From a virus (Duplodnaviria; Caudoviricetes): a stretch of 64,000 bases of DNA. The notes beneath the pieces are model-generated. The model was not told where the DNA came from. It saw nothing but the letters and a program-made list of their open reading frames with translations, and ran no database searches. Of the stretch, positions 13,829 through 52,551 are shown in pieces. How positions within the stretch are numbered: the stretch's first letter is position 1; each line of letters opens with the position of its first letter. The DNA lies in the IMG/VR virus record IMGVR_UViG_2681813556_000004, positions 19,783 to 83,782 of that record, one strand, 5' to 3'. The position numbers were made by a program, and so were the translations under genes.

Positions 13829-14222
13829 GGCGCAGCCCCTTTACGACTGCCCCGGCCAGAAACAGCGGCAACACATAGGGCAGTCGGCGCCGAAGGCGTC
13901 GCGGGCCGAACATGGGATGGATGTTGCAAATCCAGCCCCGACCACGCACCCACAGCGCGGCATGGGCGGTGCCACGGTCGGTCCTGCCGACCCACAGCGC
14001 CATCCGCAGCACGGCGATATTGAGGATCAATCTCCACCAGGACCGCTGGCTGAGGATCCATGCGGCTGTCAGTGCGAAATCATCGCAGTCACCGATCAGC
14101 GGCCCATCCTCTGCATCGAGGATGGTCCAGCGATCCGTGGCTTCGGCCTGATAGCGGAACCGCAGACGAAGATCGTCCAGAGGATCGACCCAATCTGCGC
14201 GGGGGGGAATATGCGACGGCAT
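13821..14222 (-). CDS. Transglutaminase-like cysteine protease (BTLCP-like)
   Basis: DRW...GDCDDFAL and GTAHAALWV resemble the GDCEDYA and HAVL motifs of BTLCP. Confidence 0.6.
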   Translation of the reverse strand: MPSHIPPRADWVDPLDDLRLRFRYQAEATDRWTILDAEDGPLIGDCDDFALTAAWILSQRSWWRLILNIAVLRMALWVGRTDRGTAHAALWVRGRGWICNIHPMFGPRRLRRRLPYVLPLFLAGAVVKGLRRA

Positions 14223-14260
14223 TCGGACTCCTGCGTGTCATGCCCGAAGGCACGTCCCGC

Positions 14261-14273
14261 GCACGTCCTATGC
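14261..14273 (-). promoter_or_regulatory. Conserved late-leader motif GCATAGGACGTGC (copy upstream of protease/lysis genes)
   Basis: 13/13 identical to 46284-46296; folds as GCAU-AGGAC-GUGC. Confidence 0.7.
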
Positions 14274-14312
14274 GTCGATTGACCCACACATACCAAATCT
14301 GGATGCGGCCCG

Positions 14313-17300
14313 CTAGTTGAAGATTGCCGGTGCCCTTTCGCTCCTGATCCGGTCGTTCAGCTTCGGGTTCAGCGAGACGCCGAACTCGTTGCGCTCGCTG
14401 GCCCGGATGCGCCCCAGCATCGACTGCCGCAGGGTGTCCGATGTGATCGGATATTCGGGGTAGCGCATGTTGAAGTCGCGGATTGCGTCGATCACGCCTT
14501 CCGGGATCGGCTGGCCCGACCGAAGGGCATCGCCTGCCTCACGGTGCAAGGATTTGCGCTCATCGGTGATGCGGCGCTCGACATTCCTCAGCCGGTTGTT
14601 GATCCGATACCGCTCGGCCAGTTGCGCGGGTGTGAAGCCGCTGGCCTGCATGATCGCCTGATACGGGCTGACATCCTCGATCAGCGGATCGCCGTTGCGA
14701 GTGATTGCACCCTCGGTGCTGAACCTGCCAGCCTTCATCAGGTCGCGCACGGCCTTGGGCACTGCCGCCTCGATCCCGCGCCACCAGTCCCCATCTCCGA
14801 TGTAGTCGAGCCCTCGATAGAACCCCAGGGGAATGCCCGCGACCGGCCCAAGCAGTTCGCGCATATGGGCGTCGTAGAGATCCTGCCCCTCCAGATCGCG
14901 GTCATCCCCGCGGAACCACAGGTTTGGCATCCCGACACGCTCCGTCAGATCGGCGCCCAGAACCCGGCCAGGTACGCCGCTCATGGCCATGCCCATGGCA
15001 TAGTTCCAGGCCGCCACGCCGGGGGTGTCGCCCTCCATCAGCAAGGCATCCTGCAACCATTCCTCGGCATCGTCGCCCCCACCGGGGAAGAAGGCGCCAA
15101 GAAGCATCATCAGCAGGCCATAGCCCCATGTGCCGCGAATACCGGCATGGGCCATCATGGATAGGGTGATGCCGATCAACTGCGACCGGGCTTCTGCGCG
15201 TTCCTGCTTGCTGGCCCCGTGCAGTGATTGATGGGTATCGCGGAACAGCCGCCACAGCATGTTGACCACGAAGTTCTTCATGCTGGTCACGATGCGCGCC
15301 AGATCCCCTTGCATTGCGCGGGGACGGCTGCTGGACTGGTAGTCGAAATGCACCTCCCACGTCATGTCGGCTGCGGCATCGATCGCTGCCAGCCCGCTCA
15401 ACCCGTCCGCTTTGGCCAGCCGGTAGCCCGCAAGGAATGTCACCTCCCGGTTCAGGCGTTCGGCATGGTGGAACATCCAGCCGATCTTGCGCATGACGCG
15501 CTCACGCACCGCACTGTATTCCACGCCGGTTTCGGCCACGGCAGCAAGATCATGCGCCTGGGTCTTGTCGATGGTGCCCCGGCGATAGGCCTCGTTCAGC
15601 GCATCGCGTTCGTCTTGTGCCAGTCCTTCGGCATTGGCCGCGCTCCATGTCTCGCGCCAGTTGGCGCCGCGACCCTTGGAAAAGTCGCGCAATGCCCGCG
15701 CCAGTTCCGCTGATACGCCAGAGACGCCCGCCTTCCTGAACCGTGTCGCCATCAACGGGATGCCCACCACGGTCGTTTGCGTCAGGTTGGCGACCGCCGC
15801 CGCCGGTGTTGCGCCAAGATACCAGATGAAGGCGAGGTTGGTCAGGCCAGCCGCCCAGGCACTGGTCAGGGGCTCCATGGTGAAGTCGTGGCGGCGTTGC
15901 ATTTCCCGCACAACTGCCCCCATCCGGTTCGGATTGTCCGATTTGCGCGCCTCAAGCTCGGCCTCGTCCATGTGATCTTCCAGCAGGATGCCGTATTTGA
16001 GACGGGCAAGCTGGTGCGCGCCATGGAACATGTGCTTGCCAAAGGCGCGATAGGCATCGCGGTTATAGCCAGCACGCCCCTTGCGATGGACCTTCGAGGT
16101 GCGGATCGAGCTATCCGGCAAGGTTTCCAACCACCGCTGCCAGACCGCATCCATCACTTCGAAATTGGCCCCGGACTCGGCCAGCACCTTTTCCACATCG
16201 GCAACGAAGGTGGGATCGACCTGTGACCGTAGCGCGCCCTTGTTCGAGACCAGACCATGCTGGACGCGACCGGGATGCAGTGCCTCCTGTTCACGAACGA
16301 ACGCCTGCTGCTGGCTCTCGCGCTCGAAGCGGGAGAAGGACATCACCTCGCCTTGCTCGTTGCGCACGGTGACAAAGTAGTCACCAAAGCGCGCCAAGGG
16401 CACATAAGGCCCCTTCATCCGGTTCTGTTCGAACATCTTGCGCAGGGCCGTCAGGCGTGCCCGCGCCGCAAATCCACCGCGCGCCTTCACCGCATCCAGC
16501 TTTGCCTGTGCCTCTGCCAGCGCATCGGTTTTTTCCTGCCCGGTCAGACCCTCATCCTGAATCCGCCGGGCTTCCTTGTGGAAGGCGCGCTCGGCGCGCT
16601 TCAACCCGATCCGCGTTGCGTTTTGCAGGTTCTCCATCACCGCCTTGTCGAAGTCGTCCGCAATGGCGGTGTATTCGGCCAGCACCTTGCCATACATCGC
16701 CTTGAATGGCTCGGGCAGCGCATCATAGGCCCGCTTCAACTCCATGTGGGCCTCGGCTTTGCGGGCCGCGGCCTCCAGCGTGGCGCGTGCCCATGCCTCG
16801 GCACTGTCCCCGCGCCGGGACAGTTCCTCGCGCGCCCGTTGCAGCCAGACATGATCGGAGGGCAAAGGCTTGGAGGGATCGACCCCGGCCAGCGTGGCGC
16901 GGTGCATGAGGTCCATCATGTCGTCATTCGCCCTCGGGTCTTTGCGCCGCAGATCCAGCCATTCCTGCGCCACGGCATCCGCTCGGCCATGCCAGGCATT
17001 GCGCAAGGCATCCATTTCCTCCTTGGTCCGCAGATAGGCCCGCGCCGACACCAATCGCTTGCCAAGCTCCATGAACAGCGGGCGGCCCGGTACCAGCGAG
17101 AGCAGGTTGTATTCGCCATCGCGCCCCTTGCCGACCATGGCGTCGGTCAGGATCGAGGACACGAAGGCACCGGGTTCCTTCCAGTGGTGACTGCCAATCA
17201 GGCCCTTGGCCTTCGCTCCGCTGCGCATCAGGGCATCGCGCATTTCGCGGTCATCCATCCGCCCGGCACCCGGCCCATCCGGCCCGCGCCCGCCGACTGT

Positions 17301-20300
17301 GCCGCCCGCGATCCGCTCCATCACCAACGCAGGGGACACAAAGCCTTGACCGCGCAGCCCGGACGCAATGGCTTGCAGGAATCCCCGCACCTTGTTGAAG
17401 ATCCGCGCCAAGGGCCCAGCCGCATCGCGTGCAGTCGCCCATTCACGGTACATCTCGGCAACCGCCTCTTCGATCTGCACCGAAGTGACCTTGTCGCCAT
17501 AGGCCCGCTCGACACGCGCCATCAGATCGGCATCGACCCGTGCAGCCCGGACCAGCGCCCGCCATTCCTCGGCGGTGAACAGGCCATAGGGCTGGCCCCA
17601 CAGGTCGGGATCGCGCAAGGCATGGACAATCTCATGCCGCATGACTCCGCGCGCATCCCGCGCCGCCGGGTTCAACTCGATCAAGGCCCCGCGCTGACGG
17701 CCCTGGATCGGTACGCCCGACGCCCCCAGCAGCCCGCGCACGACACGTGGCGTCACCTTGCCAGCCAGACCGGCCGCCGCAACCTCGGCCTCGGCCATCC
17801 GCGCAATGTCGCGCAGGGAATCCACCGGCACGGCGGCGGCGTTGATTTTCGGTGGTGCAAGCTGTAGGTTCAGCGTGTCGGCGCCGATTTGTAATTCTGG
17901 CTCCACGCGGGTCTCCCGCGCGTCCATCTGGCCTTGTGCCGGGGCGCCGATATTGCCGCCCAAGTTCAGGTCATAGAACATCCTGCCGTTGTCCATCTCG
18001 CGGATGACGATATGGATGGGCTCTTGGCGGCCGGCGACAGAAACCTGAGCCTGGAAATAGTGAATCTTGCGGACATGCGCGCGGCCGAAGCGGTCCTCGG
18101 ACTCGCCGGTTTTCTCCGCGCTTGCGACGATCTGTTCCAGCGCAGGCACGGCCCGCAGCAGATAGTCGAGCGGCTTCCCGCCGATCTTGCCCGCAGCGGC
18201 GCGCGTGAACGACACCTCCCAGCCCGTGGAAGTGTTCGTGACCTTCCTGCCTTGCAGGTTGTCGCGATACCACGCACGCGCCTTGCGTTGCAGATCAAGC
18301 ATGTCCTCCCACGGCCCGAGTTCGTCGCCGGTCAGGCGCGCGGCAGGTTCCTGATCATCAAAGCGGGATTCCTTGGCCTCGTCAGGCGCGTTCTCCGCCA
18401 GAAGGGCGCCTTCCAGTGCATCGACCTTTTCTGCCAGTTCGTTCAGCTTGTCCTGGTCTGCAAACCCTTTCAGCTTTGCCAGACCTTCCATCACATCGGC
18501 GCGCTCGCGCTCGCGCCGGGCAATATCGGCCTCGATCCGGCGCGGCGTGGCCTCGATCTTGGACAATGCCCCTTCGACCTTCCGGGCCATGCCAACCGGA
18601 TCCTCGGACCAGCCAACCATGACCTCGTTGTCGCGTGGCAGGGCGATATAGTAGGTCACGGCATTCATCGCGTGCGACACTTCGATGTGCAGCGGAAAGC
18701 CGGAAACGGTTCCGACCTTATCCTGATGTCTGAAACCCGTCCCGGCCAAGGCGTCCTCTGCGGCGCTGATCAGATCGGCGCCGAACTCCTTGCGCTCGGT
18801 ATAGGTCTTGCCGCCCATGCGCGCCTCGAAGGCATCGCCTGACAGGTCTTGTACCTTGGCGGCTTGCGGCTGCCAGAAGGTCAACTCCTCACGGTCCATT
18901 GCAATGGCGCGGCCCAGTCCGCGCGCCTTCGCCTCCATCTGCTGGCGTTCGCGCACCGCTGCCCCGGCCCGGCGCTGCAACTTGTCGCGCTCCGCCCGCA
19001 ACTCGGTCAGTTCCAGCACCCGAGGATCGGCGGTGGACATGGCTTTGGCTTGCTCATACTGGCTGGCCTCGCCAAGATCCTCCATGTCGCGCACATTGGG
19101 ATCGCCACGGAAGAACCCTTCGATGAACCCGGCCTTGCGCGCCATCATTTGCCACATGGTCGCGTCGTAGGTACCCTTGGCCGAGTAATCGAGGATTTCG
19201 ATTTCCCGGTTCATGTTGCCCTGCCGGATGCCGCGACCATTTCTCTGCTCGTCGTCGGCAGGGAACCACAACGGATCAAGGTTGTGGATCGCCGTGATGC
19301 GCCGTTGTGCATTGACGCCCGTGAACAGGGTCTTGGAACCGATCAGGATCCGTTTCTTGCCCTCGTTCATGTCATTGAACGCCCGCTGCTTGCGCGCATC
19401 GGATGTCAGATTCTCGGCCAGGATGATTTCGTCGGCTGGCACGCCCATGGCCACCAGTTGCGCCTTGATGAAGCGGTGAACCGAGAAGGACGGGTTGTGT
19501 TTCGACGGGTTCACGCCAAGGGTCGAGAACACCATTTGCGTGGTCGGGCCACGCATCAACGGTTCGTCGGTGTAGCCACCTTCCTTCTTCACCCCGTAAA
19601 GTGGGGCGTCGGCGCCTTCTTTCCAGCGGCGGTAGATGTTGTTGATCATCCGCTCCAGCTTGGAGTTGTTCTCGCCGGCGCTGGGGTCGACAAGGCGCAT
19701 GTCGATGGCTGCAAGGCGACCATCGTTGATGACCGACAACAGGATGTCGTCACCCTTCTTCACCGGCCCCTTCCGATTTTCGATCATGCGCATCCGCGCG
19801 CCCAACTGCTGCTGGTACGCCTTCAGCTCGGGCGAAGCCTCCACCACGATCAGGTTGCGCTTGCCATCTTTCAGCGCAGGCCGGGTCACGTACTGTTCAA
19901 GGTCTTTCGACGACACCACATCCATGACCTGCCGCACCATGAGCGACAGTTCCGGGGTGTTCACGAACTTGGCGAAGCGCGTGACCAGCTTGTACCCCCC
20001 ATCGGGGGCTTGCTCCAAGGCGTTCTCCGTGGTGCCGAAGGTGGCTGCCCAGGAATCGAAGGCCGAGATGTTGCGATCATCCAGCGCCTGCGGCTGCAAG
20101 TACCGGCTGATCGAATAGAGTTCCGCCATCGTGTTGGTAATGGGCGTGCCGGATGCCAGTACCAGACTGCGCCCCGGATTGCGTTGTGCAAGCGAGCGGG
20201 TCTTGATGAACAGGTCCATCGACTGTTGCGAGCCCTGCGGATCGACCCCCTTGATGCTGCCAAGGCTGGTGGCGAAGGATAGTTTGCGGAACAGGTGCGC

Positions 20301-23300
20301 CTCGTCCACGAACAACATGTCGGCGCCGGTCTCATCGAAATCGAACACGGCGTCCTTGCCCTTGTCCGAAGTTTGCCGTGCGATCCGCTGTTCAGCCGCC
20401 TCAAGAAGGGCCTCGATCTTCTTGCGGGTCTTGGTCTCCCCGCTGGTGATGCCCTTTACATCAACTCCCAGCGTGGCCGCCATGCTGTGGAGGGCGCCAA
20501 GAACGGAACGTTCCATCCCGGCATCCTCGCCAAACTGGCCGCCGCTCAGCCCTTCCAGAACATCGCGCACATCCTGCAACATGCCTTCGACGGCAGCTTT
20601 CTTGGATGCCTCCGATGCCGGGATCAACTGGAACGCAGAATGGGTGATGATGACCGCATCGTAGTCACCAAGCGCGGCATCCGCGACGAACTGCTTGCGG
20701 CGCGAGGTATGAAACCGCTTCTCGTCCGCGACCAGAACCTTCGCCAATGGGTATTGCTGATAGAACTCGGTGGCGAACTGGATCAGCATGTGGTTCGGCA
20801 CAGTGTACCAAGGCTTCCGTGCCAGCCCGAGGCGCTTGGCCTCCATGCCAGCGCCGATCATGGCGGAGGTTTTCCCGGCCCCTACGGTATGCGCCATGTA
20901 GGTATCGCCAGATTGCAGGATCCGGGCGATCACTGCCGTCTGGTGCGGGCGCCAACTCCAATCGGAATGGATGCCCGGCGTGGTCAGGTATTCGCCATCG
21001 TATTTCGGCGCCACTTCCGCATTGAAGGTCCGGTTGTAGAGGGTTTCCATCTCCGCCGTTCTGGCGGGATCAGACCAGAACCAGTCGCGGAATCGGGTCT
21101 GCAATTCATTGGCCTTGTCGGTTGCTGCCTGGGTGGCTTCTTCATCGACCCAGGAGTCTGTGCTTCCATCCTGATTGCGGCGAGTTCGGCGCACCTCGAC
21201 CTTCTTGTTCGCCATGACCAGCCCCATCAACTCGCCAAAGGGGCGATCCTCGGTGCCGAACTCCGAGGTGGCCTTCGCGCCGGTGGTGGTGCCGTTCACC
21301 AGCCAGATGCCAAGACGCGGTTTGAATTCGACCTGCAACTCCAGGCCAAGAGCCTCGGCAAAGTCCGGATAGATCGAGGTAGGAAACCAATGGGCGCCAA
21401 GCGGGACGGAAATGTCCTGCGCCGCGACGGGCGCGGGCTGCACTGCGCGCAAGGCATCGACGTTCGGCTGATACTCTGGGTTCGCCCGCGCCTCGCGCTC
21501 GGCTTCTTCCAGTTTCACCACCACGTTGCCAGACAGGTATCTCGCGCGGGTTTCCCACTCCCTTGTGCGCGGGTTCTGGAAGATCTTGCCTTCCAGTTCG
21601 CTGATCACCCGTTCCGATGTGCTGTTGGACAGCGCAGCAATCCTGCCGGGATCGACGCGCCCGGTTTCGCCCAGCAGGTGCAGAAGCGCATCCTCCGGGC
21701 TATTGATCTGGGGCCGCGACGAAACCCTCACAGCATTCTCGGTGAACACGCGGGTTTTCTGCGCGGTATCCGTTTTCTCGTCGTACTTCTCGATGGCCAG
21801 AAGGCGATAGGACTCGGGGTCATCCATGAACGGGTCGATATTCGGCCGCGTCACGATGATCTTGTCGTCCATGGCTTCTGGCGCGAATGTGCCCTCACGA
21901 TAGCCGGGCGCCTGTCGTGCTTCCTGCCGTGCCCGCGCGATTTCCGCCATGGACGCGCCCGCCTCGATCATTGGACCGGCATCGAAGCTGCCAATATCGA
22001 AGGGTTCACCAGCGGCGCGGGCATCGTTCTCGGCCTGTTGCCGCGCGCTCTCCTGCTCCACGATGCTAGGTCGTTGCGTGCGCCTATGCTGCAAGCCGAT
22101 AGGGCCACGCTCCTTCACATAAGCATCGTAGGAATCATTCAGCGCCTTGCGGGCGGCGCTCGCATCCTTCCCATCCACATCGGCGGCGTACACATCGCGC
22201 AGTGCGTTCTTGATCGGGATCAGGGCTTTCACCGCCTCCATGGCGGCTTTCGGCATCCCCTTGGTGTTTTCGCGGCTGCGCGGCTCGACCTTTCGGCCCG
22301 TATTGCCGTCGAACAGCCACAGGGCGCCATCCTTCAGGTAGAATGAGCCAGGCTTGGTCTCGGCGTGATCGGCGTCCAGCGCGTCCAGTTTCACCGATTC
22401 CGGTGGGGCCGACATGATGTTGCTGGGAAACTGCGACAGGACCGATTTGAGGTCGGCACGCAGATCGGCGTTCGGGCGCGGGCGCACACCAACGCGCGCC
22501 CCGGCGGTGAGTGTGTCATAGAGCCCTTGTTCGCCAAGGATCATATCGGGATTTTCGATGAAATAGCGGTTCACCGCCGCCTGTCCAGTGGTGCCGTCAC
22601 TGCCGGGAAGGTCGATCACCTCGGACTGGCGCCATGCCGGATTGGCCTCGGCCTCACTGTCCACGCGCTTGCGCAGCACGATGATGTCGGTAGTGACTTC
22701 GGTTCCATTTTCCTTGAAGGCTGTATTGGGCAGCCGGATTGCACCGACCAGATCGGCCCTGTCAGCCAGATAGTCGCGTGCCTTGCTGTCCATCTTGTTC
22801 ATGGTCCCTGCGGACGTGATGAACATGAGAACCCCGCCTGGGCGCACGGCATCCAGCGATTTGGCAAAGAAATAGTCGTGGATGAAGAACCCTTGCGGGT
22901 AGTCGGGATCGGCCTTGATCTGTGTTCCGGCAAACGGAGGGTTGCCGATAACCAGATCGTAGAACCCTTGCGGCAGCTTCTCCTTGATGAAGTCGCCGTT
23001 CTTGATGTTGTGCCGGGGGTACAGGGCTGCCGCGATCTGGGCAGTGATATGATCCAGCTCCAACCCGGTGTAGGTGGCGTTCAGGCTTCCGGGCATAGTG
23101 CCAGCAAAGCCGCCGACCCCCATTCCTGGCTCATAGACGCGCCCGCCGGTGAACCCAAGCTGCTGGGCAAGTGTCCACATGCTCCGCAGCGCGGACTCTG
23201 CGGTATAGAAGGCGTATTGAGAGGTGCGCGAAAGGGTTGCCCGCTCCTCGGGCGTTGTCATGGTCTCGATTTCAGCGGCCAGATCGGGAAAACGGATGGT

Positions 23301-26300
23301 GCCATCGCTGCGCGGAAGGGTGCCCGCCAAGGTGCCGGCGCCGCCATATTTGGCGAGGGTCGCGCGTTCCTCAGCCGTCGCCGGACGACCCTCTTGCTGG
23401 ATGGTGCGCAGGGTGCGGATCGCCGCAATGCTCTCTCGTGCGCGGGTCTTTTCCCCGCGCGCCAGTTCAAGCCCGCCGGGCTCGATGACGTGGTTTACTG
23501 GTCCTCGCCCGCCAGTGCCGTTTCCAGGGCCAGAGCCATCGCCACTTCTCTGACCATCACGTCGCGGGCCGGATCGTTCTCCGGTACGTTCTGCAACGCG
23601 ATTTCCTGGTCTGCCTGCTGTACGATCATCCGAACGTAGGCTTCCAGCTTGTCCGGTCCCCGCTTGGAGATCTCCCGCGCCTTCTTGGGGGCTCGGTCGA
23701 TCATCGCTTGCATTATTGCGGTTATCATCGCGGCGGTTCTCCGGTTCGGCATCGACGCCAACATTACGGGATTCCGGCTCAGAATGCACCTTGCTTTGCG
23801 ATGCTTCTGCCTCGGCCATCGCGCGGCGCACCTCGTCCAGGACGGCCTTGGCATCGTCCATGTCCGACACGTCTTGCCCGTCGAGGTCCATGGTATCGCG
23901 GACATGATTGTAAGCGGCGCGCATCGGAGCCTGGGCTTCGCGCATGGTCAGGCCGGTGCTTTCCGCAAAATCACGCAGCATCTGTCCGAACCGCTTGGTT
24001 CCGGCCTCGATGTAGAGCCCGACCAGTTCCGCCCCGAGGGTGATGTATTCCGGGTCAAGCCCGCTGCTGGTCTGATTGCGCGCTTTGGCTGCAAGGCGTG
24101 CTTTCAGTTCGTCGGCACGCTTCTGCTTGTCCTCCGACAGGGCAGAGAGGATGCCGCTTGCAGGCTTGCGCCTCTGTGCCCCCGCCGATTCCGGCCCGAA
24201 GATCGCTGTGCGCAACGTTTCCATCTGCTCGCCGGTAAGGCGATCAGCCACCTCGCCGGAGGTCAGTCCTGTTGAGACGGTCGTGTCCAGCCCGGCATTT
24301 TTCAGGGCTTCGCGCCGCTGGTCGCGGTTGTTGGTCCACCACCAATCAAAGCGGCGCGGGCCGGTGGGCTGCGGGCTGATTGGGACAGGTGCATCGCTGG
24401 CCTTGCTGCCCACAGGCGTTTCCCTGCGCGCTGCTTGTTCAGGCTTGCGGGCATCAGCAATCACGGACTCGATCTTGGCCTCGTCCACATTGTGGGTGCC
24501 AGCGAAGATCTGGCGGCCTTTCGGGTCCGTGATCGTGGTGCGATTGACCTGGCGCTTCACCACATAGCCATCATCGGTCACGCGGGCCTGATCGGTTGTC
24601 GGCTCCCCGAATGCGTCTCTGGTTCGTTCGTAGCCAGACAGCAGATCGCCAAGACCGACCGCAGGTTTCTGTCCTGCAATCTGATAGGATGGTGCTTCAA
24701 TGGTTCCGGTGTTTTCCAGCGTCCCGGCGCGGTACAGTCGCCCGAAGGCATCGGTCAGCGCGCGCTTACCGTCATCCGACAATCCATCCCACGCCATGCC
24801 TTGCCGATACTCGCGTTCCGCCTTTGGCCCGGCTTCCTTCAGGATCGCATCCCGCATCGCCTTGTCGGCATTGTCCCACCATGGGGCGCGGGTCGGGGTC
24901 GGCGCGGCTTGCAGGTCGATACCGGCAACCTTGGCGCCAGCCTGACGCACATCAGCATCGTCCTGCGGCGTGATGATTTCGCCATCCAGCGGCTTGGCCT
25001 CGGGGCGGCGCACCTCATATGCCCGTTCGCCATTCGGAAGGTCGACAAGGCGAACATCATAGCCCTTGCGCTTGAGCCCATCATAGAACGCCCGGCCATC
25101 TTCGGTCAGTTCGTAGCCAGAGAGGAACCGCCAGCCGCGCTCTGCGGCATATTCGATGGCCTTGTCATGCAGTGCGGTCGAGACACCCTGACGCTGCATG
25201 TCCTCGCGAACCTCGGTCACGTCAGCTTGCAATGTCTTGGAAGCTGCGTCGGGGAAGGCAATCATGGCAGCATCACCGAGGCGGAACGCCACGGAGTGCT
25301 CCCCTTCGTTCTCGACCTTCACATCAGCGGCTCCTGGACGGCGCGGCTGGGATGGCCCGGTATCGACAATGCGCGTCTTGCCGGTCTGCAAGCTGTTGAG
25401 GATCAGGACGCCGGGCGTGCCCTCTTTCGGCGCAGGCTTCGGCATGACTGCATCGCGCACCTTGTCAGCGTGCTTGCGGGAAAAGATGAAGCCGCCTTCC
25501 TTGTCGTCCCATTTCAGGCTGACACCGGAAACAGCCGGCGGCTGATCCTTCGGAACCCCGCGCAGGACTGCGGCCTTTTCGCGGATGTTTTCGATGACAG
25601 GGGAGATGGATTCGGACGAAGCCGGGGGAGGGGAAATTTTCCCGCCTGCCTTTGCCTTTCCGCTCACCGGCGTGTCGGTCTCGCCAGAATCCAGCCATGC
25701 CTTGAACTCGGGCAGCGCCATCTTGCGGATGCCGCCGATGCGTGCGGCCCCGCGCCCGTCGCTGAACCCGGCCTGATAAGTGGCCTTGGCATCTGCCGGG
25801 GTGTCGAAGCCCAGCATGACTTTATGTTCATCGAACGTGCCGCTGTCCGGGTCGATCTGATCCACCACCCAGACGGACTCGCTGGCAGTGTTCGGCCCCA
25901 TGTAAAAATCCACATGGTCGCCATCGGCGCCTGTCGTGCGCAGGATGCGGCCATACTCGGCCGGCATCGTCACCTTCCATTCGGTGCCGTCGGGCGAGGT
26001 GCCCTTGCGCTCGCTGCCCTTGGCGTTTTCAATGGAAAGGCGCATCCCCTGCCAGTCGATCTTCGCCGTCTTGTAGTTCTCGGCCTCCTTCTGGGCCGGG
26101 GTCGGGTCAGGGTTGGTCTCGGCGGCTGCGGCCTCGAACTGTTCACGGGTGGGCACCGGCTTTTGAGGCTCATTCGTTGGCGGCAATGCCGTTTGAGGAT
26201 CACCTTGGGCCGGTTTGCTGTCAGCAACGGTAGTAGGCTTGCGATTCAGGCTTTCCAGATGCTCGCGCGCCGGCACAGCCTCATATTTCGCGGTGTTCAG

Positions 26301-28964: not shown

Positions 28965-28998
28965 AGAACGGCCCCCTTACGGTTCGGTCTATGGCTGT

Positions 28999-29009
28999 CA
29001 CATCCTATG
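28999..29009 (-). promoter_or_regulatory. Late-leader motif CATAGGATGTG upstream of the giant gene
   Basis: One mismatch to CATAGGACGTG; intergenic, ~35 nt before the ATG. Confidence 0.65.
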
Positions 29010-29060
29010 GCAGCCTGTTCCCCTCCTGATACCGTATGATGGCCCCCGCCGACAAGCGCG

Positions 29061-32765: not shown

Positions 32766-33224
32766 TCACACCCCGCGCACAGCGGGATCGGTTGCATCAT
32801 CGGCAGTGCGCTGGAGCGCATCCCCTCGTTCCAGCACCATCACGATAGCATCCCTGCCACCCCTCAATCCACCCCGGATGCGGTATTCAAAGCTGGCACC
32901 ACATTTCAGGGCAGCGGCTTGCGCAGCCCGGTTGTCCGCGGCGATATGAGCGAACAGTCGCGGCAGGTTCATCCCTCGCGGATGCGTTGCCATGGCGATC
33001 AGGCTTTCGATGATGCCGCGTGTCAGCCGACGACCGGGCGCGAGGCCGAAATGGAACTCAGCACCGTTCACGTCCATGTTCTGGAACACCGCAACACCGA
33101 GCAGATCGCCGTCAGGCGCGTCATAGATGCCCCATGCGACCACATCCGCGCGCCAGCCAGTCGAGTGGGTGAGGTGGAGGGCGGTCTCAAGAAGCCGGGT
33201 CTGATCCATGCGAGAAAAGTGCAT
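32766..33224 (-). CDS. GNAT-fold acetyltransferase-like virion assembly protein
   Basis: LLGVAVF...AEFHF...IAADNRAAQAAALKCGASFE; sits just before the ejection genes, the position of T7 gp13-like genes. Confidence 0.7.
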   Translation of the reverse strand: MHFSRMDQTRLLETALHLTHSTGWRADVVAWGIYDAPDGDLLGVAVFQNMDVNGAEFHFGLAPGRRLTRGIIESLIAMATHPRGMNLPRLFAHIAADNRAAQAAALKCGASFEYRIRGGLRGGRDAIVMVLERGDALQRTADDATDPAVRGV

Positions 33225-43398: not shown

Positions 43399-43414
43399 CG
43401 GCTATCTCCTTGGA

Positions 43415-44580: not shown

Positions 44581-44639
44581 GGCAGTTCTCCCGTTTCAGA
44601 TGGGCCGCGCCTGCCGCAGCGAGGCGCGGCGGAGGCTCA

Positions 44640-45083
44640 TCACGCCGATGCGTAGCGCAGGCGCAGGTGCAGCTTCTTGTTGGCTGCGGGGGTGATGGCT
44701 GCCGATGGCACCACACCAATGCTGCGATGTTCGCCGGCAACCGCGAGCCCGACGATGCCGATCAGGGGCTTTGCCGCCGGTGTCCCCGCTGCCTGGTCGT
44801 TGAACAACTCCGCGCCGCAGCTCCGCGCGCTTTCCACATCGCCCGGCGTGCCGGACATGAAGCCCACGTCGAGAGTGATGGCCCCGAGGTTCTCGGTTGC
44901 AACATCCACCGCCAGAATGCGGTTTCCGGCAGCAAGCGGCGCCAGTTCCAGCACATCGGTATCGGCAACGGCCTCGGTGAAGGTGTGGGTGATGATGACT
45001 TCGCAGACCACGCCTGCCTTGTTCGGCACGGGAATGGGAGTGCGGGCATTGCCCTTGAAATAGGTGGACTGTTTCGTGGCCAT
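44640..45083 (-). CDS. Capsid decoration/cement-like protein
   Basis: Beta-rich 147-aa ORF directly after the major capsid gene. Confidence 0.6.
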   Translation of the reverse strand: MATKQSTYFKGNARTPIPVPNKAGVVCEVIITHTFTEAVADTDVLELAPLAAGNRILAVDVATENLGAITLDVGFMSGTPGDVESARSCGAELFNDQAAGTPAAKPLIGIVGLAVAGEHRSIGVVPSAAITPAANKKLHLRLRYASA

Positions 45084-45151
45084 GGTGGCGATCCTTGTGC
45101 TGTCCGGTTGCTGGATGGCGGGGCCGGTCGGGCGGCCCCTGCCGGATCAGA

Positions 45152-46246
45152 TCAGGCGGCGTTGGGGTCGCGGCAGGAGGTATCGACGGCGATGACGCCA
45201 AAGTCCTTGCCGTTGAACCGGGTCTTTTTCATCCCGAGGATCGCCCCGCAGTAGATGGCCACCTGGTTGTCGGCGTCGAACATCTTCTCGACCCATGTGA
45301 AGCGGGTACCGCGCCCACCCGAGCCATAGGCGACGACACCGGCTTGCCGACCCATCAAGAGCGACCGGGCCGCGCTGACGTTGCCGCCGACGCCGTAATC
45401 GCTGAAACGACGCACGCCTTCATGCTGATGCAGTACGGTGTCGTTGATCATGCCGAGGCCGCCCTTCACGATGGGGCTATTGCGGCCCTCGCTGGTGGCC
45501 AGCGCCTGCTGGATCTTGGACCACGACAGATCGCCGGTTTCCACGCGCATGTCGTAGGCTTGGAAGGGGCTCATCAGGAGGATGAACCGCTTCGCGCCTT
45601 CGATGCTCACCGGCGTCATCTTCATCACGTCCGGGTTGGTGGCATTCATCATGCGCGGCTTGACCGTCACCCGTTCGATCAGGGCGACGTTCATCTTGTC
45701 GGCGGCGGTCAGGGTGGCCTTGGAAACAGCGGTCCCGCCGTAAAGCTGGTGGTCGGAATCGGGTGCCTGGATCGGGTTGCCTGCGAACTCGCCCGAGAAC
45801 TTGCTGTCCTGGTTGGCCGCGGTGGGGGCGCCGGACAGATAGACGTGGAATCCCTCGTCCACCCATTCGGCCATGTAGGTCGCGGTGCGGTCGCGGGCGA
45901 TGCGGCGCAAGTCGTGCAAGGTGCGCTTGCGCGTCATGCGACCGCCACCCGAGGCGCCTTTGCGTACCTGGTCGATTTTCACTTCGTCCTGGTAGAAAGT
46001 CAGGGGTTCCTCGGTGCCTTCGACCACATTGTCGCCTGTGGTGACGCCCCCCCGGAGGTTCACCGACAGGTCGAACTTGATGGCGTCACCGGCATCGTCT
46101 TCGAGGTCGGTGCGGCGCTCGATGATGTTGTTTTCACCGGAGCCGATGAAGCGTTGGTAGTAGGTTTGCTTGTCGGCTTCGAGGGCCAGCGACGTGGCCC
46201 ACCGCTTCACCGCCTGGGGGGAGTTTACGCCAACAGTCGTCAGCAT
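45152..46246 (-). CDS. Major capsid protein (N4-gp56 family-like)
   Basis: AVKRW...GDAIKFDL...VEGTEEPLTFYQDEVKIDQVRKG...LHDLR...KKTRFNGKDFGVIAVDT; AAGGAG RBS before ATG 46246. Confidence 0.92.
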   Translation of the reverse strand: MLTTVGVNSPQAVKRWATSLALEADKQTYYQRFIGSGENNIIERRTDLEDDAGDAIKFDLSVNLRGGVTTGDNVVEGTEEPLTFYQDEVKIDQVRKGASGGGRMTRKRTLHDLRRIARDRTATYMAEWVDEGFHVYLSGAPTAANQDSKFSGEFAGNPIQAPDSDHQLYGGTAVSKATLTAADKMNVALIERVTVKPRMMNATNPDVMKMTPVSIEGAKRFILLMSPFQAYDMRVETGDLSWSKIQQALATSEGRNSPIVKGGLGMINDTVLHQHEGVRRFSDYGVGGNVSAARSLLMGRQAGVVAYGSGGRGTRFTWVEKMFDADNQVAIYCGAILGMKKTRFNGKDFGVIAVDTSCRDPNAA

Positions 46247-46283
46247 ATCGGACGCTCCTTTGGTCAAGAGAGGTTTGACCCAG

Positions 46284-46296
46284 GCACGTCCTATGC
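46284..46296 (-). promoter_or_regulatory. Conserved late-leader motif GCATAGGACGTGC upstream of the capsid gene
   Basis: Between the CsrA-like stop (46302) and the capsid RBS; identical to 14261-14273. Confidence 0.7.
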
Positions 46297-46301
46297 TTGG
46301 C

Positions 46302-46499
46302 TTAGGAGTCCCCTACCACATGTTGGGTGTGTGTATCAACTGGCGGATTATCTCCGCCATCCGACATTGTGATCTTGACGTCTGGGGGCGCCGAAACTGC
46401 GACACGGATACGTCTGTCACCGGCCTTGATCAGGTCGAGAGTGACGTCTCCCACCCTGATCTTGGCGCCGGTCCCCATCAAGATATTGCGAACAAGCAC
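46302..46499 (-). CDS. CsrA/RsmA-like RNA-binding protein
   Basis: GGAGG RBS, GTG start; MLVRNILMGTGAKIRVGDVTLDLIKAGDRRIRVAVSAPPDVKI follows the CsrA pattern ML.L.R..GE.I.IGD.I.V.V......VRLGI.AP..V.I. Confidence 0.7.
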   Translation of the reverse strand: MLVRNILMGTGAKIRVGDVTLDLIKAGDRRIRVAVSAPPDVKITMSDGGDNPPVDTHTQHVVGDS

Positions 46500-46515
46500 G
46501 GCGTGCACCTCCCTA

Positions 46516-47409: not shown

Positions 47410-49664
47410 TGGATCGCTCCTTGTGCGGCGGGTTGTGCGGTAGGTTGCTCGGTGGGCTGGACGGCACCGGGTGGGATCGTGGCGGCGGCTGGCGCTGCCG
47501 CTGGCGGGGCGCCGCTGGCTTCGGCATTGGCGAGGATCTGGTCAGCGGCTCTGGCGACGGCCGGGGCGCCCGCGATGGCTACGGCGGCTTCGAAGGCGGC
47601 TTTCAGCTTGGCAATCTGGTCGGCAGGCAGGGAGGCAGCGGCCTTTTCGGCTTCGGCGCGGGTCTTTGCGGCCTTGGCTTCCTTCTCGGCCAGTTCGGCC
47701 TCGGCCGCGCGCTTCTGCATTGCGTCCGCTTCGGCTTTTGCGGCATCTGCGGCCTGCTTTTCCGGCGTCGGGTTATTCGGGTCCGCATCGGGATCCTCGG
47801 CGCCGGTGATCTGACGGATGCGCTTGACCAGTTCGTCGCGCTTGGGCACGTCCAGAGCCTCTACGACCAGATCGAGGGTTTGCAGGACGATCTGGGGCGC
47901 AGTGGCGGCCAACCGTTCCATGAGCCCAAGCAATTCTTCGGCCTGAGCCTGCCGGGCGGTCGCACGCCAGTCATCTTCGGTGATGACGAAATCCGCCTTC
48001 GAGTTGGCGATGGCGGTGTTCGGATCGCCATTGTTGATGCTGATGTACTGAGGGTTTCCCCGACTGTCCGTGATGCGGAATTCGTCGGCCTCGGTGTAGA
48101 ACTGCTCGACGTTCACCAGCAGTTTTTCGCCATGGATCATGCGGGCCTGGCGCAGGTTCTCGAAGAAGATGAAGGTGGCAAGCTGGCCCTGCTCCTGACG
48201 GGCAATGATCGCCTTGCCGGAGGCAGCATTGGTCTTGCGCCCGAGGTTTTCATCGGTAACGCCAGACACCTGCTGGATCATCTGGGCGTCCCGGCTCATC
48301 AGGTCGATATGTGCCGCTGCGAGGTTGGTGTCAGTCTCGATCTTGGGCGGCGTTCGGTTCGGCTTGTGAACGATCACCGCATCGGGCCTGCCTGCCTCGT
48401 CGCGCAGTTCCTCGATGTCATCCACGGCACCTTCCTCGACAGTGACGCGGGTTGTGGACAGGTGATGCAGCGCCTTGGAGGCGCGCTTGTTCAGGTCACG
48501 CTGAATGTCGCGCAGGCCACGGATGAGGCCATAGGGCATTCCGTCCGAGGCTCGGCGGTAGCCCCAGATCGGGGTGAATGGGTAGCGGTTGTGCCGATAG
48601 GGCGACTCCCGAATATCGAGAAAGCCCGCATCGGTCAGCAATGCGCAATGAACAACCTCGCGCGGTCGGGTGACGAGGGTTGCGCGGCCAGTGGCCAGTT
48701 CCTGCCAGTGACCGGGGCTCCATTCATCCAGAAGCTCGCCATTGAACTGCCCGCCCCGGATGATCTTGGCATTGGGCTGGACGCGCTTGAACCAGACTTC
48801 GATGCAGCGCACGCGGCGGCGTTCGGTGTCGTAATGTCGGTTGACCGGGCCGCTGGTATCGAAGTGTGCCAGTTCCTGCGCATCCATGGCCTCATCACCC
48901 AGATCGTCCAGTGTCAGCAGGCCGGGTGTCACATCATCTGCCGCCGACAGCAGCACGCCCTTCCGTTCGGGCCACAGAGCGGTCGCCAGGTCCAGATCGA
49001 GCCACTTGGCCCGCATGACATAGCGGGCATCTGCGATGTCCATGCGTGTGCTGGTGCTGTCCCACAGCATTGATCGCCACGATTCCCAGCGGTCGAACAC
49101 GATAGTGCCGTCCTCTGGATCGCCTTGGCCCGTCTCGACCCAGCCGACACCGGCTTTGACCGCATCGGTGAATGCCTGGGCATAGGCGAATTCGCTGCGG
49201 TTCACGTCGCGCAGGTGGGCGAGCAACTGTGACTTGATTTCCGCCTGCTTCAGCCCGTCCCTGTGGCGTGGCAGCACCTTGTAATCCATCGGCGCGCGGC
49301 GCTGGCTGCCCAGCACCCAGTTCACCGAGGTCTGGATCATGTTGAACACGATGGGGGCCTGACCTCGTGCAGCCAGGGCGGCCAGTTCTTCGTCCGTCCA
49401 TTGCTGGTGGTCGTACATTGCCTCGTCCATCGCCATTTGCAGACGATTTTCGTTCTGGCGTTCCAGTTCGCGGGTGTAGTGGCCCAGCACACGGACATGC
49501 ATTGCCTGCCCTTGGGGGCCGTCCATCCATTCAATCTTGGAGGATGCCTTGTCGGCGCTGTGCTGAGCCTGCATTCGCTCGAAATAGCCGTCGCCCGCCT
49601 GCGCTGGCCTGCGCGGGTCATACTCCACCATGTTTCGCGGGTTGGTATCCTGTGGATCAAACAT
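47406..49664 (-). CDS. Portal protein (P22-like)
   Basis: QWTDEELAALAARGQAPIVFNMI, AFTDAVKAGVGW, PYGLIRGLRDIQRDLNKR; start at MFDPQ 49664. Confidence 0.9.
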   Translation of the reverse strand: MFDPQDTNPRNMVEYDPRRPAQAGDGYFERMQAQHSADKASSKIEWMDGPQGQAMHVRVLGHYTRELERQNENRLQMAMDEAMYDHQQWTDEELAALAARGQAPIVFNMIQTSVNWVLGSQRRAPMDYKVLPRHRDGLKQAEIKSQLLAHLRDVNRSEFAYAQAFTDAVKAGVGWVETGQGDPEDGTIVFDRWESWRSMLWDSTSTRMDIADARYVMRAKWLDLDLATALWPERKGVLLSAADDVTPGLLTLDDLGDEAMDAQELAHFDTSGPVNRHYDTERRRVRCIEVWFKRVQPNAKIIRGGQFNGELLDEWSPGHWQELATGRATLVTRPREVVHCALLTDAGFLDIRESPYRHNRYPFTPIWGYRRASDGMPYGLIRGLRDIQRDLNKRASKALHHLSTTRVTVEEGAVDDIEELRDEAGRPDAVIVHKPNRTPPKIETDTNLAAAHIDLMSRDAQMIQQVSGVTDENLGRKTNAASGKAIIARQEQGQLATFIFFENLRQARMIHGEKLLVNVEQFYTEADEFRITDSRGNPQYISINNGDPNTAIANSKADFVITEDDWRATARQAQAEELLGLMERLAATAPQIVLQTLDLVVEALDVPKRDELVKRIRQITGAEDPDADPNNPTPEKQAADAAKAEADAMQKRAAEAELAEKEAKAAKTRAEAEKAAASLPADQIAKLKAAFEAAVAIAGAPAVARAADQILANAEASGAPPAAAPAAATIPPGAVQPTEQPTAQPAAQGAIQ

Positions 49665-50154
49665 CGCGGGAGATCTCCGACTGGCGGGTTTCGCCGGTGA
49701 CGGTGTTGGTGATCTTGATCTCACCGAAGGACGGGCCGCTTCTGCGGCGATCCAGCGCCGGTGCCGGCGGCATGGACAGAAGATCGGGCAGATAGTGGTT
49801 GATCGTGTCCAGGACGCGCAGGCGGTCGCGCGGGCTGTGAGCATTGCCGGGAAGCAGGCCATCTGCGAGCCATTGGAATGTGCGTGCCCCGCAATGCTCT
49901 GGGTCGCCGACATCGCCATGTGCGGCCCATCGCCATGCCTCACTCAGCGGGATCACGACCGGGACCGTTCTGCCGCGGGCGATAGGGCGCAGTGGGTGCA
50001 GCAGCACCATGCAGGGCTCTGGCAAGGGGCTTGCATCGGTACGGATCCACGATCCGACGACGACGATGCCATTGCGTTCGCCGTCGAAGTGCCGCCGACG
50101 CAGATCAAGGGCTGGTGCCTCGATCATGGCGCGGGGAATGAGCATTTCGGTCAC
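49657..50154 (-). CDS. Conserved phage protein between terL and portal
   Basis: GTGA overlap with the terL stop; ends ...DLLSMPP...GEIKITN. Confidence 0.7.
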   Translation of the reverse strand: MTEMLIPRAMIEAPALDLRRRHFDGERNGIVVVGSWIRTDASPLPEPCMVLLHPLRPIARGRTVPVVIPLSEAWRWAAHGDVGDPEHCGARTFQWLADGLLPGNAHSPRDRLRVLDTINHYLPDLLSMPPAPALDRRRSGPSFGEIKITNTVTGETRQSEISRDV

Positions 50155-51560
50155 GCAGTCAATCCTGACGTTCGGCGCGGCCTCTTGCTCGCGGAGTTGT
50201 TCTTGGGGTGGAGGAAATCGACGGACTGGCCCCACTGACGGAGGGCGTCGGCATAGTTCGAATAGCGGTCGTGCTCGGGTTCGTCGGTGAACGCATCGAG
50301 CCGGGCGTTGTACTTCTTGCGGTAGTTATCCATCGCCACGATGCCGTCGCCGCACTCGTCAGCGTCGAAATACACGTTGTGGCCGAGGGCCAGCCGGGTC
50401 TGGTTGATGCCGGTCAGCACTTCCTGCACGCGGGGCACAATCTCGAAGCGCAGGCCGGGCAGCAGCTCTTGCAGGAGCTGGACCGCACTCTTGCCGGTTT
50501 GCAGGCTCTTGTTGGCGGCGTCATGCGGCAGATAATGCGTGCCGGAAAGATTGTAGCCGGTGGCCAGCAGGAACTTGGCGTAATGCTCCAGGCTCTCCCC
50601 GCTGTTCTCGTATGCCTTGATGAAGCGTGTCTCACCCGCAACCTGCTGCATGAACCAGATTGCGGTGGTGTCATTCCAGCCCAAGTCCCAGAAGGTATGG
50701 ACCGGCAGGCCGGTGGAATAGGGCACATGCCGGATTCGGCCCTCGGCCCGCAGCTTCTGCATCTCGTTGGCATAGTAGGCTCCCCGGATGCGACCCTGCC
50801 GCCAGAGGCCCATCAGCAGGGCATCGCGTTCCTCGGGCGGAAGCTGCAACAGGGCTTCGCGGTAGCCTGTGCCGCCCAGATGGGTATTCTCGGACAAGCG
50901 CGCCGGGATGAACTGGCGGAACATCGTCGTGATGGTGCCGAGTTCTTCATCCACGATGTCGACGGGAATGCAGGTTGCCTTCCCATCTTCCTGAATGCCC
51001 CAGCGTTCCATCACCCACTTCTGGCCGGGACCATCCGGGTTGGTGGTGGCCCGGATGTAGCGGGGCAGCGTCTTGTCGGTGCTGCGGCAGCGTGAGAACA
51101 GGTAGAGATAGCAGGTCGGCGTCGGCCAAAGGGTGAGTTCGTCAAAGCCGATGTAGTTCCAGGCCCGGCCCCGGTATTTCAGGCGGTCGCTGTCGTTTTG
51201 CAGATAGCCGAATTCGACCTTGGCACCGCTGGAAAAGGTCCAGACCTTTTCGGTGGAGTTGTAGGAGGCGCCTGGGTCCAGATCCTTGTAGACCTCCAAG
51301 CTGCGCCCGATCAGGTCGCGCAACTCGGGGAAGCTGCGGCGGAACAGGACGGCGCGGTGGTTGGGATTGTCGATGCCGTCATGTTGCAGGCACAGCGCAT
51401 CAATCAGCAGGGCATCAGACTTTCCCCCGCCGGCCGCCCCGCCATAGAGCACCTCGAAGTCGTCGCATTCCAGAAATACGGCCTGCTTGGGCGTGGGCTT
51501 CCAGATCACCTCATAGGTGTCTGGATCAGCGTCCCACTCACCAGGGCGCAACATGCTCAT
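50151..51560 (-). CDS. terL: Terminase large subunit
   Basis: LYGGAAGGGKS (Walker A), IGFDELT (Walker B), IRATTNPDG, WDLGWND, YLPHDA. Confidence 0.95.
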   Translation of the reverse strand: MSMLRPGEWDADPDTYEVIWKPTPKQAVFLECDDFEVLYGGAAGGGKSDALLIDALCLQHDGIDNPNHRAVLFRRSFPELRDLIGRSLEVYKDLDPGASYNSTEKVWTFSSGAKVEFGYLQNDSDRLKYRGRAWNYIGFDELTLWPTPTCYLYLFSRCRSTDKTLPRYIRATTNPDGPGQKWVMERWGIQEDGKATCIPVDIVDEELGTITTMFRQFIPARLSENTHLGGTGYREALLQLPPEERDALLMGLWRQGRIRGAYYANEMQKLRAEGRIRHVPYSTGLPVHTFWDLGWNDTTAIWFMQQVAGETRFIKAYENSGESLEHYAKFLLATGYNLSGTHYLPHDAANKSLQTGKSAVQLLQELLPGLRFEIVPRVQEVLTGINQTRLALGHNVYFDADECGDGIVAMDNYRKKYNARLDAFTDEPEHDRYSNYADALRQWGQSVDFLHPKNNSASKRPRRTSGLTA

Positions 51561-51946
51561 TGAGCATCATCCTCGCGCCTGAGTGGCCGGGTTTCGATTG
51601 GCGCCTCGACCTTGGGCGGGACAAGGATCACGCGCACCTTGACCTTGTGGTCATGCTCGATGGGTTTCCCGCCCTTGCCGGTGTGTTCGACCGAGGACAG
51701 CGGCTTGCCATAGGCTCTGTCGAGAATAGCCGTTGCGGCTGACACACGCGCGGCCGGCGGCGCGGTGCGGCTTTTGGCAATCGTGACAAGTGCTTGCAGG
51801 GCGGCTTCGCCATGCTCTTGAGCCTGCTCGCGGATGGCCTTCTTGAGGACATTGTGAGCAGCAGGCTTTCGGCCAGCGCCGGGGCGCTTTCCGCCGCGCT
51901 TTTTGGGCGCGCTGATTTCCTCGTCTTTTTTCAATTCATCACCCAT
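51557..51946 (-). CDS. terS: Terminase small subunit
   Basis: RGGKRPGAGRKP...ARVSAATAILDRAYGKP; directly upstream of terL; start MGDE at 51946. Confidence 0.8.
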   Translation of the reverse strand: MGDELKKDEEISAPKKRGGKRPGAGRKPAAHNVLKKAIREQAQEHGEAALQALVTIAKSRTAPPAARVSAATAILDRAYGKPLSSVEHTGKGGKPIEHDHKVKVRVILVPPKVEAPIETRPLRREDDAQ

Positions 51947-52551
51947 TGCCGGGCGACGTTCTTGAAGCTGATGCCCAAGACCGCTTTCGCGATTGTTCGC
52001 TGGCAGACGCCATGTCTTGCCGCCAATTGCCGCTGTGTTGCGCCACCACGGGCGTATTTCTCTCGGATGGCTGCGACTTCGGTATCGGTCAGCTTTGCCT
52101 GCGGGTGCTTTTCCCCGCGAATGGCATTCTTGACCTTGGCGTGTCGGCCTTTTCTGGTCATGTCGAGGTTGTTGTCGGCCCGTGTTCCGCCGAAAAGATG
52201 CGCGGGGTTGCAGCATCTCGGGTTGTCGCAAGAGTGGCAGACAGCTTCCGGCAATTTGCCGTTGGCGAGCCCGTAGGCAATCCTGTGCGCCAGCATCACT
52301 GACGAACTAGACCTCCCGACATGGAATTGTCCGTAGCCCTTGTTCAGGGCGCCAGACCACTCCCAGCATGATTGCGGGGATGGGCGGTCTACCTTGGACC
52401 AAAACCGTTCGACGTTCACCTGGTATTCCGCCGCGAAGGCGGCGTGATCTACGATGTTCCGCTCGTTGAGTGCTCCGACCTTGCGCGCCACGTCCTGTGC
52501 TCCATCCGCCATGTGGTGCACATTGTGCATCATTTTGGCGGACTCGGGCAA
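51931..52551 (-). CDS. Free-standing HNH (HNH_3-type) homing endonuclease with C-terminal HTH
   Basis: RFWSKVD...CWEWSG...GYG...AHRIAY...CHSCDNPRCCNPAHLFGGTRADN; GEKHPQAKLT; exact start uncertain. Confidence 0.88.
   Translation of the reverse strand: MPESAKMMHNVHHMADGAQDVARKVGALNERNIVDHAAFAAEYQVNVERFWSKVDRPSPQSCWEWSGALNKGYGQFHVGRSSSSVMLAHRIAYGLANGKLPEAVCHSCDNPRCCNPAHLFGGTRADNNLDMTRKGRHAKVKNAIRGEKHPQAKLTDTEVAAIREKYARGGATQRQLAARHGVCQRTIAKAVLGISFKNVARQWVMN
52489..52499 (-). promoter_or_regulatory. Late-leader-like motif CACAGGACGTG at the head of the packaging operon
   Basis: Variant of CATAGGACGTG with the U.G pair replaced by C-G; lies within the uncertain 5' end of the HNH gene. Confidence 0.4.

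Follow-up and report, generated by a model that had tools for sequence, protein, structure and literature searches.

A conserved, candidate start-hiding RNA element in late-gene leaders of a Bcep22-like prophage, and its possible link to a phage CsrA-family protein

What might a phage regulate with a CsrA-like protein of its own in a host that seems to have none? The question is raised by a 64,000-nucleotide (nt) stretch of viral DNA, here called ‘the window’ (positions 19,783 to 83,782 of IMG/VR record IMGVR_UViG_2681813556_000004). Directly before its major capsid gene the window encodes a 65-amino-acid (aa) protein that resembles CsrA, and several of its late genes are preceded by short leaders containing the motif CAYAGGAYGTG. 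To our knowledge, csrA genes carried by phages have been on record for more than 10 years, mostly as ‘morons’ that may tamper with host regulation, and we know of none for which a target has been shown. The leaders described here contain a specific, conserved, cis-linked candidate target for the phage csrA: a 13-nt RNA element predicted to adopt two mutually exclusive folds, one of which would hide the translation start. That these leaders act as RNA switches downstream of a promoter is, on comparative grounds, highly probable; that the CsrA-like protein is the ligand of the element is possible, and in our judgment a little more doubtful than likely. With a specific candidate target and a structural model in hand, the role of phage csrA becomes directly testable.

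The motif CAYAGGAYGTG occurs exactly four times in the window, always on the minus strand, at 14262-14272, 28999-29009, 46285-46295 and 52489-52499, just where the preliminary description had placed it. Dinucleotide shuffles of the window predict 0.06 copies, and none of 100 shuffles contained four or more; at up to two mismatches there is no excess in the window (50 matches, 51.6 expected). The same 13 nt are found at 14261-14273 and at 46284-46296; as also noted at the outset, TGGTA(G/T) stands 17 nt ahead of CATAGG in both. Copies one to three occupy short intergenic leaders, one from the stop codon of the csrA-like gene to the capsid ATG, one from the stop of the upstream gene to the ATG of a gene for a giant protein, and one from the stop of that giant gene to the first gene of the lysis block. 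The fourth (52488-52500, minus strand) had been counted with them, and this assignment found no support. It lies within or at the start of an HNH endonuclease open reading frame (ORF), has no TGGTA box, and shows no structure above that of shuffles (z +1.0); no HNH ortholog was found in the two related prophages examined. A role for it as a fourth leader is unsupported. The 4.17-Mb host genome contains 11 copies of the motif, compared with 7 of a reversed control pattern, and 4 of the 11 fall within the 38-kb late region; outside the prophage the motif occurs at background frequency, and the notion of a host regulon was dropped for this reason.

DNA and protein searches place the element among the Bcep22-like podophages, and the window is itself a Bcep22-like prophage. 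We assembled 93 distinct capsid leaders from viral, metagenomic and genome collections. A recognizable element, with the 13-nt consensus GC-R-Y-A-N-G-A-N-G-U-G-C, is present in 73 of them, 36-58 nt upstream of the ATG, and most of the others carry more divergent versions. Target sites had been proposed at the capsid, giant-protein and lysis leaders, and in related phages a conserved RNA element is indeed found there. A Frigidibacter prophage and the complete, 60-kb phage G006 (capsid identity 72% each) have the 13-mer at all three; a Celeribacter prophage (capsid identity 60%) has it at the capsid and lysis leaders, and one more before the portal gene. In the three Rhodobacteraceae relatives the 13-mer stays in place while the intergenic sequence on either side varies. 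In Burkholderia-type relatives the element occurs once, at the capsid leader. The additional Celeribacter copy before the portal gene (G002:C4 ~121211, L055) reads ACAC-AGGAC-GUGU and forms a perfect 4-bp stem; the window has no portal leader, since terL directly precedes the portal gene. Rfam 15 at gathering thresholds gave no matches in the 64-kb window. As a short, conserved, structured leader, the element is like the cis-regulatory and Csr/Rsm RNAs of Rfam, and it matches none of those families. It is a candidate cis-regulatory RNA that is widespread on the capsid messages of phages.

What lies upstream of the element bears on whether it acts as DNA or as RNA. The preliminary description had offered a late promoter as the alternative to an RNA site. 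A promoter does appear to be present, but TGGTA is, as the alignments are best read, the extended -10 of a sigma70-type promoter, and the motif would be transcribed rather than serve as a -10 box. All close relatives share one layout (TTGnnn, 18 nt, TGG-TAnnnn, 13 nt, element), and in relatives from Burkholderia, Ralstonia, Serratia and Klebsiella the same place is taken by canonical -35 and -10 boxes, the -10 again 13 nt from the element and aligned to TGGTAG; on this alignment CATAGG was rejected as a -10 box. Promoters were scored comparatively across relatives, in place of a strict consensus scan. Sequence upstream of the element has a sigma70-like score of 13.4, compared with 9.5 +/- 1.5 in control windows (72 leaders; p 1e-31), and the distance from -10 to element peaks at 13 nt, with 54 of the 72 leaders between 11 and 16 nt. 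Because the -10 lies ~13 nt upstream, the element is expected to start ~6 nt into the RNA. In the window, the capsid late promoter (46310-46339, minus strand) comprises a -35 TTGATA at 46339-46334, an 18-nt spacer, the extended -10 TGG at 46318-46316 and the -10 TAGGGG at 46315-46310. A promoter-like site can be read from the sequence before the giant gene (29026-29055, minus strand; -35 TTGTCG at 29055-29050, 18-nt spacer, -10 TATCAG at 29031-29026), and its GGTAT is kept in the Frigidibacter prophage and phage G006. The lysis-block promoter has the extended -10 TGG-TATGTG at 14295-14287 on the same strand. A sigma54-type reading of TGGTA fails on inspection, the GC being missing at the -12 spacing.

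The leaders themselves are predicted to fold into compact structures in which the element is paired to the translation start. In the capsid leader (46242-46296, minus strand), the 13-nt element forms the 5′ end (46296-46284) and is followed by a central hairpin (46280-46262), the Shine-Dalgarno (SD) sequence AAGGAG (46260-46255), a spacer (46254-46250) that pairs with GGACG of the element, and the ATG (46246-46244). Its minimum free energy (MFE) is -28 kcal/mol (z -4.8), with the element paired to SD, spacer and AUG. The giant-gene leader (28958-29015, minus strand; element 29010-28998, ATG 28964-28962) has an MFE of -23 kcal/mol (z -2.3); the element is again paired to the start site, through a 13-bp helix that reaches the start-codon stretch, and both the element and its complement around the AUG are kept in two relatives. 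In the lysis promoter and leader (14216-14295, minus strand), the element (14273-14261) is followed by a hairpin with a UUCG loop (14253-14240), the SD (14232-14228) and the ATG (14222-14220); the leader has an MFE of -30.1 kcal/mol (z -2.9), and the element pairs with spacer and AUG. About 30 nt downstream of the element a second GGA is found in the SD of the capsid leader and in that of the lysis leader (CAGGAG), and not in the giant-gene SD. The lysis leader also contains a second GGACGTGC (14250-14257), 3 nt past the 13-mer (14261-14273), so that two GGA triplets lie 11 nt apart; none of the three related phages has this direct repeat, which is peculiar to the window.

Comparison among relatives indicates that the long-range pairing is maintained by selection. 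In ~60 distinct relatives, the stretch from SD to AUG is complementary to the ‘loop’ and 3′ arm of the motif, with clear compensatory changes. Applied to 64 leaders in a plain MAFFT alignment, RNAalifold found just a 3-bp local stem; the long helix was missed because its register shifts between sequences. We therefore tested the pairing without an alignment, by comparing cognate with non-cognate duplexes. Cognate duplexes between element and start site average -13.6 kcal/mol, compared with -10.1 for non-cognate duplexes (0 of 20000 permutations) and -7.4 for shuffled start sites. The excess holds when 21 cluster representatives are used (z -5.4; 0 of 50000 permutations), and in a class-by-class duplex matrix with self pairs excluded the diagonal averages -13.3 and the off-diagonal -9.5. 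At variable position 2 of the ‘loop’, G faces C or U of the start site in 37 of 40 cases, U faces A in all 17, and A faces U in 2 of 3; at variable position 5 the pairs are C-G (14 times), U-A (17), A-U (4) and G-C (14). The two positions covary with the start site by Watson-Crick rules, for example in GGAUGUGC with GCACAUCC, AGAUGUGC with GCACAUCU, and CAUGACGUG with CACGUCAUG.

The local stem is conserved as well. Its three pairs are unbroken in all 64 sequences and vary as G.U/A-U/G-C and C-G/U.G/U-A, and the 5′ half of the element (GCGC or GCAU) is conserved even where the long helix leaves it unpaired. Two mutually exclusive helices, both evidently under selection, are the signature of a switch. 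The best-supported structure, on sequence comparison and predicted energies, is the long-range helix between element and start site, with the GGA hairpin as the alternative fold. Some Burkholderia versions of the element read as a full SD, which would suit an upstream Shine-Dalgarno mimic, but the UGA and AGA versions do not fit such a role, and it was rejected.

The gene that directly precedes the capsid leader (46302-46499, minus strand) starts with GTG at 46499, behind the ribosome-binding site GGGAGG, and stops at 46302-46304; its 3′ end overlaps the capsid promoter. On its own, the 65-aa product falls below the cut-off of 27 for Pfam CsrA (PF02599), scoring 15.2 bits (E 0.021). We gathered 69 distinct csrA-like orthologs from upstream of capsid genes. 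Pfam CsrA matches 42 of 48 aligned clade members at E <=0.01 (best 1e-12), and the clade profile matches the solved structure of RsmE (2jpp) over residues 1-46 at E 1e-14, and also CsrA structures 1y00, 1vpz and 2bti. A profile that excluded the window's own subclade still detected the window protein, at 27.8 bits (E 1.4e-10, single-sequence search). The AlphaFold2 (AF2) model has a predicted local distance difference test (pLDDT) score of 78, and its top 14 Foldseek matches in PDB are all CsrA, RsmA or RsmE chains (template-modelling (TM) score 0.55-0.69, root-mean-square deviation 1.4-2.3 A over 46 residues); the small size of the protein keeps the E-values weak (0.04-0.1). Because the clade profile, the subclade-excluding profile and the AF2 model all point to CsrA, we regard the protein, as first suggested, as a divergent but genuine member of the CsrA family, within a phage clade. 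The preliminary description noted that most Alphaproteobacteria lack CsrA, and in the host genome nothing exceeds the Pfam cut-off for CsrA.

Dozens of Bcep22-like genomes (Bcep22, BcepIL02, DC1, JC1 and others) already have an annotated ‘CsrA-like regulator’ that lies between scaffold and capsid. It is the same gene in the same scaffold-capsid position, Ralstonia, Serratia and Klebsiella relatives included; the window's clade differs in also having the element on the giant-gene and lysis leaders. The csrA-like gene itself, then, is not new, and the RNA element is the new part. The gene has been called a ‘moron’ of unknown role, perhaps acting on the host (PMC9144972, PMC7366521). The literature searched, which included PMC9144972, PMC7366521 and PMC8450108, mentions neither an RNA target nor a conserved capsid leader for a phage csrA-like gene.

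Element and gene go together. A csrA-like ORF lies no more than 700 nt upstream in 74 of the 93 leaders, and in 9 others it is found farther upstream or at another place on the contig; leaders still without an assigned csrA-like ORF are 5-8 kb fragments only. Nine of nine capsid relatives with no csrA gene beside the capsid gene, among them F116, a Shiga toxin (Stx) phage and Atu_ph08, have no element. They also lack the closing helix (duplex -9.5 kcal/mol, as against -14.5; fold z -0.7, as against -2.7). F116 is reported to carry a csrA gene elsewhere in its genome (PMC7366521). Element and csrA-like gene thus co-occur with no confirmed exception, and equal conservation of the motif in relatives without the gene, raised at the outset as a counter-indication, was not what the scan of relatives found. 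In one cluster of short contigs (L091, L094, L151 and L154), unrelated genes precede the capsid gene instead of scaffold and csrA; the cluster retains the element and its start-site complement, and the gap after the -10 box is 38 nt.

Arg44 is the residue most critical for GGA binding in work on E. coli CsrA and RsmE. Among the relatives, arginine occupies this position in 20 of 40 proteins that accompany GGA elements and in 0 of 16 that accompany UGA or AGA elements (Fisher p 2e-4, uncorrected for phylogeny). This tracking of Arg44 with GGA may reflect co-evolution of protein and RNA, or it may reflect phylogeny only. The residue found with UGA and AGA elements is I, Q, N, H, K, M, T or L. 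In Serratia phage Parlo (L059) and Klebsiella phage LASTA (L060), whose hosts own CsrA, the element contains AAGAC, not AGGAC, and lies ~60 nt before the capsid ATG. It may be that AAGAC allows these phages to escape host CsrA.

How could such a leader work? We propose that the sigma70-type promoter (TTGnnn, 18 nt, TGG-TAnnnn) would fire ~6 nt upstream of the element, each intergenic copy marking the start of a late transcript. In one fold, the element would close upon itself as a weak hairpin of 3-4 bp displaying A-GGA-N; in the other, it would pair with the SD, spacer and AUG of the gene ~35 nt downstream, sealing the leader and hiding the start of translation. Because the closed form is the stable one, the late messages would be off, or throttled, by default. 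The CsrA-family protein, whose gene immediately precedes the capsid leader, would read the 5′ hairpin, most likely by capturing it on nascent RNA and so holding the start site open. Synthesis of the capsid, giant and lysis proteins would then be licensed only after the message for portal, scaffold and csrA had been translated. If the protein is the ligand, activation is somewhat the likelier outcome over repression. The explanation as a whole, a start-hiding, promoter-proximal switch with the phage CsrA-family protein as candidate opener, is one we favour tentatively, at a little less than an even chance. The spread of the RNA to giant-protein and lysis genes in one clade suggests post-transcriptional timing of assembly, ejection-protein supply and lysis. 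A more ambitious version, which we consider doubtful, is a self-contained phage Csr circuit in Csr-less hosts. The diverged CsrA-family protein would be a translational activator acting by hairpin capture. The circuit would be ancestral on the capsid message of the whole Bcep22-like supergroup, and a single marine alphaproteobacterial clade would have copied it onto the messages for the giant ejection protein and for lysis. The specificity of the protein would co-evolve with the RNA loop, Arg44 going with GGA and other residues with UGA or AGA.

The arrangement resembles two kinds of known system and differs from both. Like CsrA, RsmA and RsmE with their mRNA operators (PF02599; RsmE-hcnA, PDB 2jpp), it pairs a small protein of the CsrA fold with a candidate short hairpin that would display A-GGA-N near the ribosome-binding site, and two of the three window leaders have the second GGA in the SD. 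Here, however, regulator and candidate targets are both borne by the phage, in a Csr-less host; Arg44 is absent from the window protein, and GGA can be replaced by UGA or AGA in relatives; and the GGA, in the predicted folds, is engaged with the start site and not exposed, with no sponge RNA seen. The other likeness is to leaders that hide their own start. In E. coli, activation of ymdA depends on CsrA, which opens a start-hiding 5′ leader. The phage leaders share with ymdA and its like the pairing of an upstream segment with the translation start, and an exclusive local hairpin that contains the protein's motif. They differ in that conservation falls on the upstream arm, to which the start site adapts; in that the element lies at a fixed distance from the promoter; and in that the ligand is a candidate only.

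Several observations weigh against the proposed opening of the leaders by the CsrA-family protein. A GGA pentaloop had been put forward for all copies, and the isolated 13-mer can indeed form the hairpin, at -1.5 kcal/mol (-0.1 for the giant-gene copy), but GGA is paired in all three full leaders (P(unpaired) 0.00-0.02), and forcing the local hairpin costs 13.9 kcal/mol in the capsid leader, 2.8 in that of the giant gene and 4.6 in that of the lysis block. Because GGA is paired at equilibrium, any effect of the protein would need a kinetic or strongly stabilizing action. The window protein has Met at the Arg44 position, as against Arg in 28 of the 67 clade members scored, and most of its closest relatives lack Arg44 too. 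Canonical CsrA binding requires GGA, and the central triplet of the 73 elements is GGA in 48, UGA in 19 and AGA in 6, leaving 25 of the 73 with no GGA, even though GGA is found in all elements of the window's own clade; Parlo and LASTA combine an AGA element with a csrA-like gene. The co-occurrence of element and gene is confounded by phylogeny, because the nine relatives with no csrA gene beside the capsid gene are the most distant ones. A strict consensus promoter scan of the region 44-54 kb of the window found nothing. One peptide of the JC1 homolog was detected in virions by mass spectrometry, a hint of a structural role (PMC9144972). Much of this would suit a structure that needs no protein, protecting the 5′ end from decay, setting a fixed throttle on translation or directing RNase III-type processing of read-through transcripts, while the CsrA-like protein acts elsewhere. 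The ensemble is dominated by the closed fold, whose stability is high; its helix of ~21 bp, with small internal loops, comes near known RNase III substrates in size; the fixed, short distance from the -10 box would suit a 5′-terminal stabilizing stem; and both the variability of GGA and the missing Arg44 agree with it, as does the virion peptide. It would not explain why the 5′ arm is conserved far beyond the needs of pairing, its GCGC or GCAU half being kept even where unpaired, why the local stem is never broken, why the element strictly accompanies the csrA-like gene, or why Arg44 goes with GGA. We consider it a serious possibility and an unlikely one.

Canonical repression, with a CsrA dimer on the GGA pentaloop hairpin and the second GGA in the SD blocking the ribosome, has in its favour that membership of the protein family is established. 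The element of the window's clade comes near to the consensus for CsrA from systematic evolution of ligands by exponential enrichment (SELEX), which Dubey and colleagues reportedly gave in 2005 as ACA-RGGA-UGU, and the GGA in the capsid and lysis SDs lies ~30 nt downstream. Yet the RNA already hides its start site, so that a repressor would add little; the stable fold leaves neither GGA site unpaired; GGA is missing from the giant-gene SD and, in a third of relatives, from the element; and Met replaces Arg44 in the window protein. We judge repression of this kind improbable. Least probable of all, and very unlikely in our view, is an element that acts as DNA, whether as part of a promoter (CATAGG as -10, TGGTA as -35) or as an operator or pause site in the initially transcribed region, recognized by a late transcription factor. 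The fixed spacing to the promoter, the position of every copy at the head of a late transcription unit and the 17-nt interval between TGGTA and CATAGG in two copies would all be expected of it. It is contradicted by the canonical boxes of Burkholderia, Ralstonia and enteric relatives, which lie upstream, with a -10 that aligns with TGGTAG and not with the motif; by the Watson-Crick covariation of variable motif positions with a start site 35 nt away; and by the toleration of G.U pairs in the local stem, a mark of RNA rather than DNA.

The late genes of the window lie on the minus strand in an order that runs from an MT-A70 methylase and an HNH endonuclease through the small and large terminase, a P22-type portal and a scaffold-like protein to the 65-aa ORF, and from there to the capsid, tail genes, the giant protein, a transglutaminase-like protein, holin and amidase. 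The HNH endonuclease ORF (51931-52551) heads the packaging genes and resembles a lineage-specific homing-endonuclease insertion. The major capsid gene (45152-46246, minus strand) matches Phage_capsid_3 at E 3e-58. The giant gene (14313-28964, minus strand) encodes a virion protein of ejection type, 4883 aa long; its counterpart in JC1, a ‘DarB-like antirestriction protein’, was detected in virions by mass spectrometry (PMC9144972). The downstream lysis block (12707-14222, minus strand) contains genes for the transglutaminase-like protein (133 aa), the holin and the amidase endolysin. Among the tail genes is one for a GNAT acetyltransferase (32766-33224); an N-acetyltransferase gene (gp63) is present in JC1 and other Lessieviruses, and is termed a ‘moron’ in the JC1 paper (PMC9144972).

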